Origin: Mayamaea pseudoterrestris | Lineage: Eukaryota | Length of the DNA stretch: 64,000 nucleotides | Reading direction: 5' to 3' | Assembly (NCBI GenBank): GCA_027923505.1 | Contig: BROI01000006.1 | Span: 806,001 to 870,000 of the forward strand | Shown: piece after piece, positions 27,299 through 35,711 of the stretch | How the letters are laid out: each line of letters opens with the position of its first letter | Position numbering within the stretch: position 1 is the stretch's first letter | The notes under the pieces: model-generated | What the model saw: only the letters and a program-made list of their open reading frames with translations | Told to the model about the DNA's origin: nothing | The model's database searches: none | Program-made: the position numbers and the translations under genes

Positions 27299-27549
27299 GA
27301 TGGTAAATGGTTTCAGTAAAAGTAAAGGGAAGAAGAGAAAGTAGGAAGCAACGGGAGGGCGTGACGGCCTTGTTGTGGACGCATTCATCATCGTTGGGCG
27401 ACCGCTCGCTTCATCCGTGTCGTATTTATTAAAGCGGCACTGAAAACCCACGGCTGACTGGCTTAGGGCTAGGGTTTTGGCGTATCTCGCACTTCAACTT
27501 GTCGCGCCGCGCGAGCGCGCCTCGAAACGAAAGTCCAACGCGTGGCTTC

Positions 27550-27760
27550 TGTTGAGCATGGATGAGAACCCAAACCGAAGCGGCAGCGGTGACGTCACGA
27601 AGACGGTCACATTTAAGTAAGCGCGGTAAGCGGCAACCGAAGGAGTGGATCGAGGACGATCACTTCTTGGAGAAAATAAGTAAAGTGGTTTTATTGACTC
27701 TGTTCTGCTTAATCATTAGTGTCGCTTCAAGGGCGCGCAAGATATATTCTAGATCCAACA
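27550..27760 (+). repeat. 5' LTR
   Basis: Starts TGTTGAGC, ends TCCAACA; identical by eye to 32565-32775. Confidence 0.96.
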
Positions 27761-27774
27761 TTTTCTCCAAGAAG
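27760..27774 (+). promoter_or_regulatory. Non-tRNA primer-binding site, complementary to LTR segment 27663-27677
   Basis: ATTTTCTCCAAGAAG is the exact reverse complement of CTTCTTGGAGAAAAT inside the LTR; no TGG follows the LTR. Confidence 0.75.
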
Positions 27775-27787
27775 CGAGTGAAAAGAC

Positions 27788-30700
27788 ATGTCTTCGACGA
27801 GCAATACTCCGACGACAGGAGCGGCGTCGAGCGGTGGAGGTGCACCTCCCGCTCCGCCAGCAAGCGAAGGAAACCGACGCAACCGTCATTATCGTCGTGG
27901 GAATCGTGCTGGGAATCGTTCCGGGAATCAAGGCAATGGTAACAGACTCAACGGACCGAGTCGTGCGCCGAGTGGAAATTTCCAAGGAAGCGAGCCGACG
28001 CTCGCTGGATTCATCTACGACTATAACGGTTCGCGCGATCCCGATGGATTCATCCGTACGACGAACGAGATCATCACTTTCGTCGGGCGCTCCTACAAGA
28101 AATATACCAAGGAGCTGCTCAAGGGCATGCGCAACGTGGAACTGGAGATTCCTGACGAGCCTGCACGTCCAACGAAGGATGCCGACACGACGGACTCGGA
28201 CTGGTCCATAATGCTCGAGGAATACAAGGCCGACAAGAAAGAGCATGTCGAGCGCGTGCGTGTATACTCCGACTTCCTCGCTGGTCTCTACGCCGTGTTG
28301 CATGGACAATGCACGGAGCGTATGAAGGATCGTGTCAAGTCGCACGCCAAGTTCCGAGACGCCGAGGAGGACACGGACGGAATTAAGTTGCTGGCGATTA
28401 TCAAGGAGATCTCGCATACGTACGAAGGGCGCTGCAAACTTGTGGATCAAGTCGTGGACATTCAAGCTGAGTTGTTCGGACGTACTCAAGGAGCGCGCGA
28501 AAGCCTGCAGAAATATTACGAAAGCATGGTCACGCTGGCAGACGTGGCGAAGGCGGTTGGCGTCACGATGCACAACGAGATTGTGGCGTTGAACATTGCC
28601 AAGGATGACAATCGTAACAAGGCGAACAAGGAGGATATCAAGGCCGCCGAAGAGCTCGAGCTTGCGATGCTTTTCGTGCGTGGCGCAACGGGCGAATACG
28701 CTGGGTATTGCAAGCACTTGCGCAACTGCTACCTCGACGGGCACGACAACTTCCCGTTGACGATCCACGATGCATACAACATCATGCAGCGTCGTGAGCA
28801 TGCGGATGGAGAAGCCACGTTGCCAACGAACGAGGGCGTGGCGTTTCACACGACTGGTACAGCGCGTGACCCTCCCAGATGCTGGACCTGTCAACAGGTT
28901 GGTCATGTGCAGCGAGACTGTCCTACGAGAACGGAGTCTACGGAGAGTGCGCCGGCTGCAGAGGCTAGTGGGGCGCAGCACTTCACGCTGGGTAGCGAGG
29001 AAGAAAGCGATGACGACGATGAGGTCGGATACATGTTCGCGCAGCCGCCGAAGGTGAACATCTCGAAGAAGGCTGTGCTCTTGGACAATCAGTCGACAGT
29101 GGATCTGTTCTGCAACGCCAAGATGCTGACGAACATTCGCCCGGTGCCAACGTGGATGGTGATCAAGTGCAACGCTGGTACAGTAAGGACGAACATGATG
29201 GGCGACCTGGAGGGCTATGGTCCGGTGTGGTGGTATCCGCAGGGACTGGCGAACATTTTGAGTTTGGCGCAAGTCCGCAAGAAGTTTACCGTGGAGTATC
29301 TCATGCACGGCGTGGATCGTCCAATGTTCGTTGTGGAGAAGCCGGATGGTAAGCAGCGAGAGTTTGTCGAGACTGACTCTGGGCTGTATGTTTGCGAGAG
29401 CTTTTCGAAGGGCAAGCGCAGCGATGTCAAGGATGGAGTGGCGATGTTGACTACGGTAGACGATAACCGTACTAACTACACCAATGATGACTATTTACGC
29501 GCTGTTAGAGCTAGGGAACTGCAAATCAAAATTGGACGGCCAAGCCTCAAGGATTACCTGCGCATCGTTACTAGCAATCAGTTGCCGAACTGTCCTGTGA
29601 CGAAGGCCGACATCCTGGCTGCTGAGCACATCTTTGGACCAGATGTTGGCTCGTTAAAAGGAAAGACGACGCGTCGCGCGTCGCATCTGGTGAAGCCTGC
29701 GATTGTTGAGCAGCTTCCACCGGCTATCATGAGTCGCTATCGAGACGTTACTCTTTGTGCTGACATCATGTATATCAACAAAGTCCCTATGTTGGTGACG
29801 TTCTCCCGCAGCATTCGTTTTGCTACGGTTGAGGTGATTCAAAACCGTACGCTTCCGGTTATGTTGAAGGCAATCGAGTCTGTGTTGAAGATTTACGCAC
29901 GCGGTGGGTTCCGTGTCGTCGCGGCTCTGATGGATGGGGAGTTCGCTCCAATGCTTGGCGCGTTGGCTGATCTCGGAGTGGCGCTCAATGCGACATCTGA
30001 GGATGAACACGTTGGCGAAATTGAACGTTTTATCCGTGTCGTGAAAGAACGGGTGCGCGCGACATACAACACGTTGCCATTTAAGCACGTGCCGGCACGC
30101 TTGGTTATCGAAATGACGAAGTCTGCCGTGTTTTGGTTGAATGCGTTTCCGAACGAGCGTGGCATTTCGAAGGATCTCAGTCCACGCACTATTGTGACTG
30201 GTCAGACAGTTGACTTTAATCGGCATTGCAAGTATGAATTTGGTCAGTATGTGCAAACGCATGAGTCGCACAGCAATGACATGCAGGCGCGCACGATCGG
30301 TGCGCTGGCTCTGCGCCCGACTGGTAATGTGCAGGGTGGGTTTTATTTCCTCAGTTTGTCTTCGGGCAAAGTTCTGAATCGTGGGCACGCTACGCCTTTG
30401 CCCATGCCTGATGATGTCATTGAGCGCGTGCATCGTCTCGCTCGTCAACAGAAGGCCAATCCGGGCATCGTGTTCATGGACCGCCACCGTGTTGCGGAGG
30501 CTGCTGAGCCAGTCATGTGGCACGAAGATGACGCCGAGGATGATGATGACTCTGATTATGATGACGACGCTTCTCGCGGTGACGACGACTCTGCCGGCGG
30601 AAGCGAAGGAGTGAATGCGACCGATGACGACGACGACGACGACGATGGTGCTGACGGCGCAATCGAAGGAGTGCCGAACGACGAGGATGGTGAGGCCATT

Positions 30701-32635
30701 GACGGCGAACTTGACGACGCGCCAGCCGTGGATGATGGCGAAATTGAAGGAGTGCCCGATGAAGGCGAAATTGAAGGAGTGCCAGCTGCTGCAGACGAAG
30801 AGGATTTCGATGCGCGCTATGGCCCACGCACTGGTCGGTATGGCCTGCGTGCGCGCAAACCTCGCTCGTTCGCTCATTTGTTCACGCTCGACGCTGCAGA
30901 GGAAGTGTCGGAGCCACTCGTCACGGCACAGATGAATATGCGACAAGGTTTAAAGGCTTTTGGCGATGCTGGAGTGGAGGCAGTGCGCAAGGAAATGCAG
31001 CAGCTACACGACAGGCACGTCATGAAGGCAGTCACCCAATGCACTCTGACTCCGCAGCAGCGCAAGGACGCTCTGGCGTATTTGATGTTTCTCAAGCGCA
31101 AGAGATGCGGGACTGTGAAGGGACGCGGATGCGCGGATGGACGCAAGCAACGAGCATACACTGCAAAGGAAGACGCAGCATCTCCAACGATAGCGACAGA
31201 GGCCATCTTTCTGACAGCTATCATTGACGCTATGGAAGGGCGCGAGGTTGCTGTGGTTGATGTACCGGGTGCTTTCATGCAAGCGGAAATGGATGAGTTG
31301 GTGCACGTTCGTTTCACTGGGAAGATGGTGGAGCTACTGTTGGAAATTGATCGCGAGATGTACGAGCCTTGCGTCACAATGGAGAATGGCGAGAAAGTCA
31401 TGTATGTTGAATTACTCATGGCGCTTTATGGTACGCTTCGAGCAGCGCGACTATTCTGGGAGAAGTTGTCCGCAAAATTGCTTGAGTGGGGCTTCGAGAA
31501 GAACCCGTACGATCCGTGTGTGTGCAACAAGATTGTCAATGGGAAGCAAATCACCGTGGGATGGCACGTGGACGATTTGAAGATTTCGCACGTCGACGTG
31601 AGCGTAGTGGATGAGTTCATCGCGCAGATGGATGAGGAGTTTGGCAAGGAGACTCCAATGAATAAGTCACGCGGAAAAGTGCACGACTACCTCGGCATGG
31701 TATTGGACTATACTAAGCCTGGAGAAGTAGCAATCAACATGGTTGACTATGTGAAGAACATCCTGCATCATGCGCCAGACGACATGGATGGAACGGCAGC
31801 TACTCCGGCAGCCAGTCACTTGTTTCAGATATCGGAAAATCCTGTCATGTTGAGCGAAGCGAAGAAGCAGATTTTTGTGACGATTGTGATGCAGTGTCTG
31901 TATCTGAGTCAGCGAGCGCGACCGGATATTCGCACAGCGATTTCTTTCTTGAGCACGAGGCTGCAGCAGCCTGACGAAGACGACTATAAGAAGGCTGCAA
32001 GAGTGATTAAATATTTACGCGGAAGCGTGGACATGGTGTTGACGCTGAAGGCGGACCAGTCCAGGATAGTCCAGTGGTGGGTGGATGCGTCGTACGCGGT
32101 GCACCCAGACATGAAGGGTCACACTGGTGGAACAATGACACTTGGCCAAGGATCAGTGTACAGTACGTCGGCTAAACAGAAGTTGGTAACAAGAAGCTCG
32201 ACGGAGAGCGAAGTTGTGGGAGTTCATGATGTGCTACCGCAGTTGCTGTGGACAGGATATTTTCTGAAGGCGCAAGGTTTCGGGGTCAAAGACACGAAAT
32301 TGTATCAAGACAATATGAGTTCAATGCTGTTGGAAAAGAATGGCAGAAGCTCAAGTACAAAGCGCACGCGACACATGAATGTTCGGTACTTCTTTGTGAA
32401 AGATCGCGTGGCAGCTGGTGAAGTCAACATTGAGCATTGTCCGACCGGAGACATGGTCGCGGATTTCTTCACGAAACCATTGCAGGGAGCCCAGTTTGGC
32501 AAGCTCCGCAACCTGGTTATGAATCTGGCCTCGAGCAGTAAGTACTACTCGGCCCAAAGGAGTGTGTTGAGCATGGATGAGAACCCAAACCGAAGCGGCA
32601 GCGGTGACGTCACGAAGACGGTCACATTTAAGTAA
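27788..32635 (+). CDS. Copia gag-pol polyprotein (1615 aa)
   Basis: CCHC knuckle CWTCQQVGHVQRDC; protease LLDNQST; integrase CADIMY/MDGEF/EHVGEIER; RT DVPGAF, ALYG, WHVDD; RNase H VDASYA, SSTESE, YQDN, ADFFTKP. No stops or frameshifts. Confidence 0.96.
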   Translation: MSSTSNTPTTGAASSGGGAPPAPPASEGNRRNRHYRRGNRAGNRSGNQGNGNRLNGPSRAPSGNFQGSEPTLAGFIYDYNGSRDPDGFIRTTNEIITFVGRSYKKYTKELLKGMRNVELEIPDEPARPTKDADTTDSDWSIMLEEYKADKKEHVERVRVYSDFLAGLYAVLHGQCTERMKDRVKSHAKFRDAEEDTDGIKLLAIIKEISHTYEGRCKLVDQVVDIQAELFGRTQGARESLQKYYESMVTLADVAKAVGVTMHNEIVALNIAKDDNRNKANKEDIKAAEELELAMLFVRGATGEYAGYCKHLRNCYLDGHDNFPLTIHDAYNIMQRREHADGEATLPTNEGVAFHTTGTARDPPRCWTCQQVGHVQRDCPTRTESTESAPAAEASGAQHFTLGSEEESDDDDEVGYMFAQPPKVNISKKAVLLDNQSTVDLFCNAKMLTNIRPVPTWMVIKCNAGTVRTNMMGDLEGYGPVWWYPQGLANILSLAQVRKKFTVEYLMHGVDRPMFVVEKPDGKQREFVETDSGLYVCESFSKGKRSDVKDGVAMLTTVDDNRTNYTNDDYLRAVRARELQIKIGRPSLKDYLRIVTSNQLPNCPVTKADILAAEHIFGPDVGSLKGKTTRRASHLVKPAIVEQLPPAIMSRYRDVTLCADIMYINKVPMLVTFSRSIRFATVEVIQNRTLPVMLKAIESVLKIYARGGFRVVAALMDGEFAPMLGALADLGVALNATSEDEHVGEIERFIRVVKERVRATYNTLPFKHVPARLVIEMTKSAVFWLNAFPNERGISKDLSPRTIVTGQTVDFNRHCKYEFGQYVQTHESHSNDMQARTIGALALRPTGNVQGGFYFLSLSSGKVLNRGHATPLPMPDDVIERVHRLARQQKANPGIVFMDRHRVAEAAEPVMWHEDDAEDDDDSDYDDDASRGDDDSAGGSEGVNATDDDDDDDDGADGAIEGVPNDEDGEAIDGELDDAPAVDDGEIEGVPDEGEIEGVPAAADEEDFDARYGPRTGRYGLRARKPRSFAHLFTLDAAEEVSEPLVTAQMNMRQGLKAFGDAGVEAVRKEMQQLHDRHVMKAVTQCTLTPQQRKDALAYLMFLKRKRCGTVKGRGCADGRKQRAYTAKEDAASPTIATEAIFLTAIIDAMEGREVAVVDVPGAFMQAEMDELVHVRFTGKMVELLLEIDREMYEPCVTMENGEKVMYVELLMALYGTLRAARLFWEKLSAKLLEWGFEKNPYDPCVCNKIVNGKQITVGWHVDDLKISHVDVSVVDEFIAQMDEEFGKETPMNKSRGKVHDYLGMVLDYTKPGEVAINMVDYVKNILHHAPDDMDGTAATPAASHLFQISENPVMLSEAKKQIFVTIVMQCLYLSQRARPDIRTAISFLSTRLQQPDEDDYKKAARVIKYLRGSVDMVLTLKADQSRIVQWWVDASYAVHPDMKGHTGGTMTLGQGSVYSTSAKQKLVTRSSTESEVVGVHDVLPQLLWTGYFLKAQGFGVKDTKLYQDNMSSMLLEKNGRSSSTKRTRHMNVRYFFVKDRVAAGEVNIEHCPTGDMVADFFTKPLQGAQFGKLRNLVMNLASSSKYYSAQRSVLSMDENPNRSGSGDVTKTVTFK

Positions 32636-32775
32636 GCGCGGTAAGCGGCAACCGAAGGAGTGGATCGAGGACGATCACTTCTTGGAGAAAATAAGTAAAG
32701 TGGTTTTATTGACTCTGTTCTGCTTAATCATTAGTGTCGCTTCAAGGGCGCGCAAGATATATTCTAGATCCAACA
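32565..32775 (+). repeat. 3' LTR, preceded by a short purine-rich tract (AAAGGAGTG, putative PPT)
   Basis: Identical to the 5' LTR; followed by TSD GCTTC. Confidence 0.96.
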
Positions 32776-33316
32776 GCTTCTCCCCCTTGTGTGGTTGTGG
32801 GAAGCATCGAGTGACCGCCGAGCATCGTAGGAGAAGACTCTTGGCTAGCTTGATTGTCTAAGAACAGGTCAATCAACGAGACGAAAGGTAAGAGTGCTAA
32901 ATGTCATCAGCTACTTCCGCAGTAAGAAGAAAATGGACGAGAAGAATGGCAAATCCAATACTCGCCACGAAGATTCACAAAGGATGCTGTCCAGTTTACG
33001 TGTGACGCATTTTCTGTGGCAGCATTATTGACGTAATTAGCGCGGATTGAAACATCATTGGATTGATTGGACTAGATATATGCATCGCAAGTTGGCTGAA
33101 AGTTGTCACAGGCGTCATCTATGTCGATAGCGCCGCGACTGCAAGATGACAGCCCATCATGTCGGCTTTGGCTTTGATGTTGGTTGATGTCGAAAGGGAA
33201 AGGGGCATTTACTTGCAGATTTGTAGCTAAGGACTTGTTTGATAAAGATACTTTGCTGTTTTGAGTTCATCTCAAATCGATACATTTCTCCTTTCCATAG
33301 GTCATTATTCTTCATC

Positions 33317-35482: not shown

Positions 35483-35711
35483 CGTCATTAGGCAATAGTA
35501 CGAAACGACTGCCAGTGTCAATTACGTCAGAAGGCATTAATACGAAACGAGTGCCAGTGTCACTTGAGTCAGAAGGCAATAGTATGAAACAAGTGCCAGT
35601 GTCAATTACGTCATAAGGCATTAGTACAAAACGAGTGCCAGTGTCAATTACGTCACAAAGGGCTATATAGCACGAAACGGTGCCAGTGTCAATTACGTCA
35701 CAAGACATTAG
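35483..35711. repeat. Tandem array of about 5.4 copies of a 42-bp unit, each containing TGCCAGTGTCAATTACGTCA or a variant
   Basis: Units start at 35483, 35525, 35567, 35609, 35651 (45 bp) and 35696 (partial). Confidence 0.92.

Follow-up and report, generated by a model that had tools for sequence, protein, structure and literature searches.

We examined a 64,000-nucleotide stretch of DNA from the diatom Mayamaea pseudoterrestris (GenBank assembly GCA_027923505.1, contig BROI01000006.1, positions 806,001 to 870,000 of the forward strand), hereafter called the window and numbered from its first letter. It holds one complete and intact long terminal repeat (LTR) retrotransposon, at 27550-32775, in which the nucleotides directly after the 5′ LTR are the exact complement of a segment inside that LTR. 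The same arrangement recurs in a fixed frame across a lineage of related loci, with sequences that covary between the two arms. We judge it likely, with a probability of roughly 0.78, that this is an intact, probably active Ty1/copia element of a diatom-wide lineage in which minus-strand synthesis is primed by the 5′ end of the element's own RNA, in the manner of the fission yeast retrotransposon Tf1.

Complementarity between the LTR and the adjoining site

The two LTRs are 211 nt each and identical in sequence, with the ends TGTTG...CAACA, and both are flanked by the 5-bp target duplication GCTTC. Ends of TG...CA together with a 5-bp duplication are as expected of Ty1/copia (Pseudoviridae). 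The features on which the argument depends are as follows, R and U5 being the repeat and unique 5′ regions of the LTR and PBS the primer binding site.

27545..27549, + strand: target-site duplication GCTTC, 5′ copy (3′ copy at 32776-32780)
27550..27760, + strand: 5′ LTR, 211 nt, TGTTG...CAACA, defined by identity with 32565-32775 and by contig divergence in other runs
27660..27662, + strand: TCA of an initiator-like motif, with the predicted +1 at 27663
27663..27676, + strand: predicted 14-nt self-primer, start of R, from complementarity and covariation
27684..27750, + strand: R-U5 hairpins inside the primer/PBS duplex (27684-27717, 27719-27738 and 27740-27750), from folds
27761..27774, + strand: predicted PBS, 14 nt, abutting the LTR end, complement of 27663-27676
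27775..27775, + strand: C directly after the PBS, candidate copy of the self-primer's cap G
32556..32564, + strand: short polypurine tract AAAGGAG followed by TG, abutting the 3′ LTR and also coding (conserved C-terminal RSVL)
32565..32775, + strand: 3′ LTR, with a copy of the primer segment at 32678-32692

Directly 3′ of the 5′ LTR the sequence reads TTTTCTCCAAGAAG and not TGG. The 15 nt at 27760-27774 form a perfect reverse complement of 27663-27677, and 17 of 18 positions are complementary when the comparison is extended to 27660/27777. Both the missing TGG and this complementarity had been noted in a preliminary description of the window made from its letters alone, and both were reproduced exactly. 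A27760 is the last base of the LTR and can pair with T27677; since it belongs to the LTR, the site proper is 27761-27774 (14 nt) and its partner 27663-27676. This pair is the sole perfect inverted repeat of at least 8 nt in 27550-27830. Throughout the 64-kb window, the 15-mer (with up to two mismatches) had no matches besides the PBS itself and, in the opposite orientation, the two LTRs. These 3 matches compare with an expectation of 0.20, and a single shuffle out of 100 contained as many. A chance origin of the complementarity was ruled out by this count and by the inverted-repeat scan of relatives described below. No tRNA gene was found in the window. A published criterion for predicting self-priming calls for at least 10 bp of complementarity to the 5′ LTR in a stretch whose offset from the LTR end is 0-5 bp (PMC6317226); the element has 14-15 bp at offset 0.

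The paired segment also begins at a plausible start of transcription. The motif TCACTT lies at 27660-27665, and the initiator-like consensus described for diatoms is TCAH+1W, with +1 at the base after TCA (PMC4686930), which in the window is C27663. The suggestion in the preliminary description that the LTR segment begins within an initiator-like motif thus agrees with a published diatom consensus. Judging from motif and pairing, the transcript probably starts at 27663, and the complementary segment would then be the first nucleotides of the RNA.

Independent data support the LTR borders. In other public sequencing runs, contigs carrying the element diverge into differing flanks at 27549/27550 and near 27758-27768; these points fit the LTR borders and reveal several insertion sites. 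A wrongly placed border was ruled out by these flanks together with the target duplication. Identical LTRs, the GCTTC duplication, a 1615-residue open reading frame (ORF) and an RVT_2 reverse transcriptase domain also bear out the earlier description of an intact Ty1/copia element. No second copy was found within the window, and no relative was found among viral contigs.

Nine runs (X1-X9, compared over window 27300-28100), which come from three studies and bear the labels of six coded organisms, contain near-identical copies of the element. Contig depth over the element far exceeds that of the flank in X1 and X7, such depth being no measure of copy number. Strain labels, high copy number or transfer could account for the near-identical copies and the high depth.

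Covariation of the predicted primer and its site in related elements

Relatives were collected by aligning 62 homologous polyproteins with the window protein (63 sequences), leading to 79 metagenome loci at 33-60% protein identity. Many of the metagenome contigs are circular permutations with a collapsed LTR, in which the end of pol, the LTR, the leader and gag are contiguous. A blind scan of the 79 loci for perfect inverted repeats of at least 12 nt with a spacing of 60-200 nt matched 40 loci, compared with 0-5 loci per shuffle in 20 block shuffles. Thirty-eight of the 40 matches fall into a single frame, YCA/arm1 ... ACA/arm2, in which the downstream arm begins at or directly after the LTR-terminal ACA, mostly as TTCAACA. 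In 3 more loci the PBS stands at the head of the contig and arm1 in the 3′ LTR at its tail. A perfect 13-17-nt inverted repeat in this frame is therefore present in 41 of the 44 loci that carry the junction. Where LTR pairs could be compared (L029, L037 and L057), a terminal CAACA closes the LTR and the site directly adjoins it. A 13-nt repeat in L050 and L051 lies inside pol and out of frame and was not counted.

Although the arrangement is constant, its sequence is not. Counting the window with the 41 loci gives 42 elements, among which 33 different arm sequences occur. Anchored at the LTR end, these give 31 distinct primer/PBS pairs that differ from one another at a median of 8 of 14 positions, and 433 of the 434 cells among the 31 pairs are Watson-Crick. 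The conservation of LTR-PBS complementarity in relatives, which the preliminary description had set as a condition for its proposal of a self-priming diatom copia lineage, is thus evident from the perfect junctions and from double-sided changes at all 14 pairs, and covariation in a fixed frame lends that proposal support.

We quantified covariation with RNAalifold on 26 sequences, comprising the window together with 25 of the 38 loci in frame (7 loci with duplicate arms and 6 of a short-spacing sublineage were excluded). The predicted consensus contained exactly the 14 primer/PBS pairs, each with double-sided changes. Their covariation score was 0.707, versus 0.219 in shuffles, none of 500 of which reached the observed value, and 0.11-0.19 when the partners were slid. 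The few unpaired cells are confined to L008, L018 and L077, whose rows were aligned wrongly by MAFFT at their 5′ ends. The duplex has a single G.U cell. In the neighboring U5 hairpin, by contrast, 6 of 7 pairs have double-sided changes, G.U pairs are many and only 72.9% of cells are paired. A duplex nearly free of G.U beside a hairpin rich in them fits copying rather than selection alone, and we read the contrast as that of a stem that would be kept perfect by copying.

The borders of the pairing are as regular as its position. Among 41 measurable elements, the number of paired nucleotides beyond the LTR end is 14 in 32, 15 in 6, 16 in 2 and 13 in 1. At the other border, a CA immediately precedes the first paired base in 35 of 42 elements, 27 of which have TCA; another 5 elements pair the A as well. 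The distance between the starts of the two arms ranges from 59 to 165 nt (the maximum in L020) and is 97-132 nt in 32 of 39 measurable elements. A short-spacing sublineage (L039, L054, L055, L059, L078 and L079), with a much shorter R-U5, has its arms 59-69 nt apart, and its paired lengths after the LTR end are 14 in L039, 15 in L059 and L078 and 16 in L054 and L055. L079 has the variant LTR end CAACT.

The window and six hand-picked relatives were also folded. They have a common plan: a closing duplex of 14-15 bp, a hairpin two bases past the primer, a long U5 hairpin whose tip is conserved, and an unpaired UUCAACA leading up to the site. The fold z scores of the six relatives range from -3.7 to -6.7. 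The middle hairpin of the window, 27719-27738, corresponds to the U5 hairpin conserved in the relatives, whose covarying stems of about 4 bp and 3 bp are separated by a bulged U/G and capped by a 5-nt loop. We take this hairpin to be a possible counterpart of the U5-IR stem-loop required for priming in Tf1.

Proposed priming by the RNA 5′ end and competing explanations

The RNA of Tf1 is described as annealing to the PBS through its first 11 nt, with RNase H cutting between nt 11 and 12 (PMC7175516). An analogous pathway would account for the arrangement in the diatom element. Transcription would begin at the base after TCA, 27663, and the first 14 nt of the RNA would fold back over about 97 nt of R-U5 to pair with the 14-nt PBS abutting the LTR, closing a junction that encloses the conserved U5 hairpins. 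The element's RNase H would cut after nt 14 (or 15), freeing a 3′-OH, and reverse transcriptase (RT) would extend this primer, copying the LTR-terminal ...CAACA first. Later, the plus strand would copy the still-attached RNA primer to its capped end and so re-create the PBS, such that in every cycle the parent RNA's 5′ R would serve as template for the PBS of the new copy. Re-templating of this kind would account for arms that are perfectly Watson-Crick in a sequence free to drift. It would also account for pairing that ends sharply at the transcription start and at the LTR border, and perhaps for a C after the PBS.

Such a C is frequent. Of 40 distinct elements, 28 (70%) have C as the next base beyond the pairing, including C27775 in the window, versus an expected share of about 0.25, and positions +2 to +8 after the PBS have no bias. 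When capped mRNAs are copied, reverse transcriptases leave an extra 5′ G in the complementary DNA, reported for >92% of full-length clones in PMC2650634 and described also in PMC4417143. A plus strand that copied a capped self-primer would accordingly end in the PBS plus C. The C after the PBS is possibly, then, a copy of the cap G, and if so it would be independent evidence that the 5′ end of the primer is a capped transcript start.

A fuller proposal would join these elements: the primer is the capped 5′ end of the genomic RNA, the PBS is rewritten each cycle, the C is an RT copy of the cap guanosine, and self-priming was acquired independently of both the Tf1/sushi group and the plant TAR lineage. 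We hold this combination tentatively, at somewhat below even odds. Were it true, the element would carry a sequence "fossil" of its own transcription start, with the paired segment stopping exactly at +1; the start site, primer length and cap status could then be read from DNA alone across a diatom-wide copia lineage.

The same pairing could instead serve only as a structural RNA element, acting in leader cyclization, packaging, dimerization or start-codon control, while another molecule primes by binding elsewhere. The duplex does close a conserved multihairpin leader, and in many elements a distance of 1-25 nt separates it from the start codon, so that the stem could affect translation. That proximity also leaves little space: the start codon follows the site by 1-16 nt in L062, L022, L055, L037, L069 and L043 and by 13 nt in the window, so that in these cases the interval from the LTR end to the ATG could not hold another PBS, and an element whose duplex were purely structural would be left without one. 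In addition, the 3′ arm is always at the canonical PBS position, and the stem, almost free of G.U and sharply bordered at fixed points, is unlike the selected U5 hairpin beside it. We therefore regard a purely structural role as unlikely.

Slightly less probable still is that the pairing primes but that the primer comes from a different source, being either supplied in trans, by the 5′ end of a second, co-packaged genome or by a short capped transcript of the LTR, or produced by a nuclease other than the element's RNase H. Sequence alone cannot separate cis from trans, and in L057 the LTRs agree mutually but depart from the PBS at two U.G positions, which would follow if primer and LTR derived from different parental RNAs. 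Such schemes add needless components, however; in Tf1, priming is described as relying on the element's own RNA and RNase H (PMC7175516), and the fixed spacing and enclosing junction suggest folding in cis. Least probable, and in our view very improbable, is a site that binds a host tRNA or tRNA half in the classical copia style, with the LTR match being secondary. Priming by half-tRNAs is known in Ty1/copia lineages (PMC6317226). Against this stands not only the missing TGG but also the variability of the PBS among relatives: 31 different sites would each need their own tRNA fragment while matching their own LTR perfectly.

Several points weigh against priming by the element's own RNA 5′ end. 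The search for tRNA genes covered the window alone. Cleavage of an RNA/RNA duplex by RNase H is assumed by analogy with Tf1. None of the sequencing runs registered as RNA contained the element, and contigs do not reveal 5′ ends; the transcription start is accordingly placed by a motif and by the end of the pairing. The binomial probability for C after the PBS (p = 2e-9) ignores relatedness among the elements. The leader of the window folds only modestly better than its shuffles (z = -2.0), 7 of 200 of which equal it. Counts of perfect pairing were drawn from loci selected for perfect repeats, for which reason the fair figures are the 41 of 44 junctions and the shuffle control; moreover, 35 of the 79 loci were classed as junction free by match coordinates, with only L050 inspected by eye. 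Finally, three loci are imperfect. L057 has two mismatches, both U.G in RNA, with LTRs that agree with each other; L007 has a one-T indel in a T run; and L041 has the arm1 frame in its 3′ LTR with no matching 5′ LTR or PBS.

L057 (290-415) is an old copy. Its LTRs are 92.9% identical and share the primer segment, from which the PBS differs at the two U.G positions. It looks like an intermediate in which the PBS is following the primer, or like the product of two co-packaged RNAs.

Self-priming itself has precedents. It is proven for Tf1 and described for the Tf1/sushi group (PMC6317226). As in Tf1 and Tf2 of Schizosaccharomyces pombe, which belong to the Tf1/sushi group of Ty3/gypsy, the diatom PBS lies directly after the 5′ LTR and complements the start of the RNA, here a predicted one, and as in Tf1 the paired region encloses structured U5 RNA. 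The two differ in host, in superfamily, the diatom element having an RVT_2 RT with the integrase upstream of it, and in paired length, which is 11 nt in Tf1 and 14 nt here (15-16 in the sublineage); the diatom element is, moreover, known from sequence only. Membership in the Tf1/sushi clade, with its gypsy-type RT and its order of RT, RNase H and integrase, was ruled out by the RVT_2 domain and by the integrase preceding the RT. The diatom element thus appears to work like Tf1 from outside the Tf1/sushi clade.

Within Ty1/copia, self-priming has been proposed for the families Houba and Osr-1 and predicted for the plant TAR lineage to which they belong, by the complementarity criterion given above (PMC6317226). 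The remark in the preliminary description that copia elements are generally described as tRNA primed therefore needs qualifying, since self-priming has been predicted in Ty1/copia before. Its observation that the 5′ LTR is not followed by TGG stands. The diatom element resembles TAR in being Ty1/copia and in satisfying the same criterion. TAR differs in being a land-plant lineage identified by a survey criterion; the portions of PMC6317226 available to us describe no frame-anchored covariation, transcription start motif or cap-derived C. The fungal GalEa copia elements also lack a tRNA-type PBS. In these, a "conserved hairpin site" is described as replacing the PBS, with no complementary LTR sequence, such that the Tf1 model does not fit (PMC5445492), whereas the diatom element has a perfect LTR complement.

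Among diatom elements, the copia-like CoDi described by Maumus et al. in 2009 are of similar size and have TG/CA LTRs, and copia-like elements are described as the principal transposons of diatoms and as activated by stress (PMC2806351). In its main text, the paper makes no mention of primer binding, tRNA or self-priming, and primer binding and self-priming likewise go unmentioned in two later papers on diatom transposable elements. We found no report of self-priming in diatom retrotransposons in the open literature, supplements and subscription journals lying outside the scope of that search. Self-priming is known in principle from Tf1/sushi and plant TAR; what appears to be new is the diatom host group. 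The comparative evidence, which reaches from the one element to a whole lineage, is unusually clean.

How reverse transcription starts in diatom copia elements was not addressed in the diatom papers searched. If the proposal is correct, self-priming would extend from fungi, vertebrates and (by prediction) plants to the stramenopiles. A self-primed lineage would escape dependence on host tRNAs and perhaps also defenses that act through tRNA-derived fragments. Annotation pipelines that require a PBS of the tRNA type will probably overlook or reject such elements; LTRdigest filtering, for example, has been applied to Cyclotella (PMC7466962). The 31 covarying primer/PBS pairs and the fixed 14-nt frame provide ready predictions for experiments.

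Encoded polyprotein and neighboring features

A single Gag-Pol ORF of 1615 residues spans most of the element and terminates 71 nt into the 3′ LTR. Its product is 99% identical to an NCBI hypothetical protein of M. pseudoterrestris. Among the best 120 protein matches, the entries that name an organism are P0002 (M. pseudoterrestris) and P0039 (Nitzschia sp.). The coding features are as follows.

27788..32635, + strand: Gag-Pol ORF, 1615 residues, ending 71 nt inside the 3′ LTR
28877..28924, + strand: Gag zinc knuckle, residues 364-379 (Pfam PF00098, zf-CCHC)
29480..30502, + strand: predicted integrase, residues 565-905, by fold match only
31103..31774, + strand: RT of the copia type, residues 1106-1329 (Pfam PF07727, RVT_2, E = 2.8e-16)

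The integrase was assigned by structure prediction. Residues 401-1001 matched no Pfam family even at E values up to 10, and a profile search of the PDB returned zinc-knuckle matches only. An AlphaFold2 (AF2) model of residues 565-905, built with 18 homologues, had a predicted local distance difference test (pLDDT) score of 81.9, and its top Foldseek matches were retroviral integrases (probability 1.0, E about 1e-7). With an integrase fold upstream of RVT_2, the predicted domain order, Gag-(protease?)-integrase-RT, is that of Ty1/copia. The presumptive protease region (residues 405-560, 29000-29467) had no Pfam hit, and its AF2 model (pLDDT 48.8) was too poor for a structure search. At the expected site of a copia protease, a conserved (W)ILLDNQST replaces D(S/T)G, with D, Q and S invariant in 7 sequences.

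The C-terminal RSVL is nearly invariant across the 63 polyproteins. It is encoded by the junction of polypurine tract and LTR, AGGAGTG/TGTTG, where the ORF crosses the tract into the 3′ LTR (32556-32635), and coding and cis-acting constraints therefore overlap at this point. The junction ..AGGAGTG/TGTTG.. is also present in L026, L041, L050, L055 and L057, and the tract at 32556..32564 is the putative plus-strand primer.

About 2.7 kb downstream of the element, a tandem array occupies 35484-35693. It has a 42-nt unit, seen as four overlapping 84-nt copies that are 61-87% alike.

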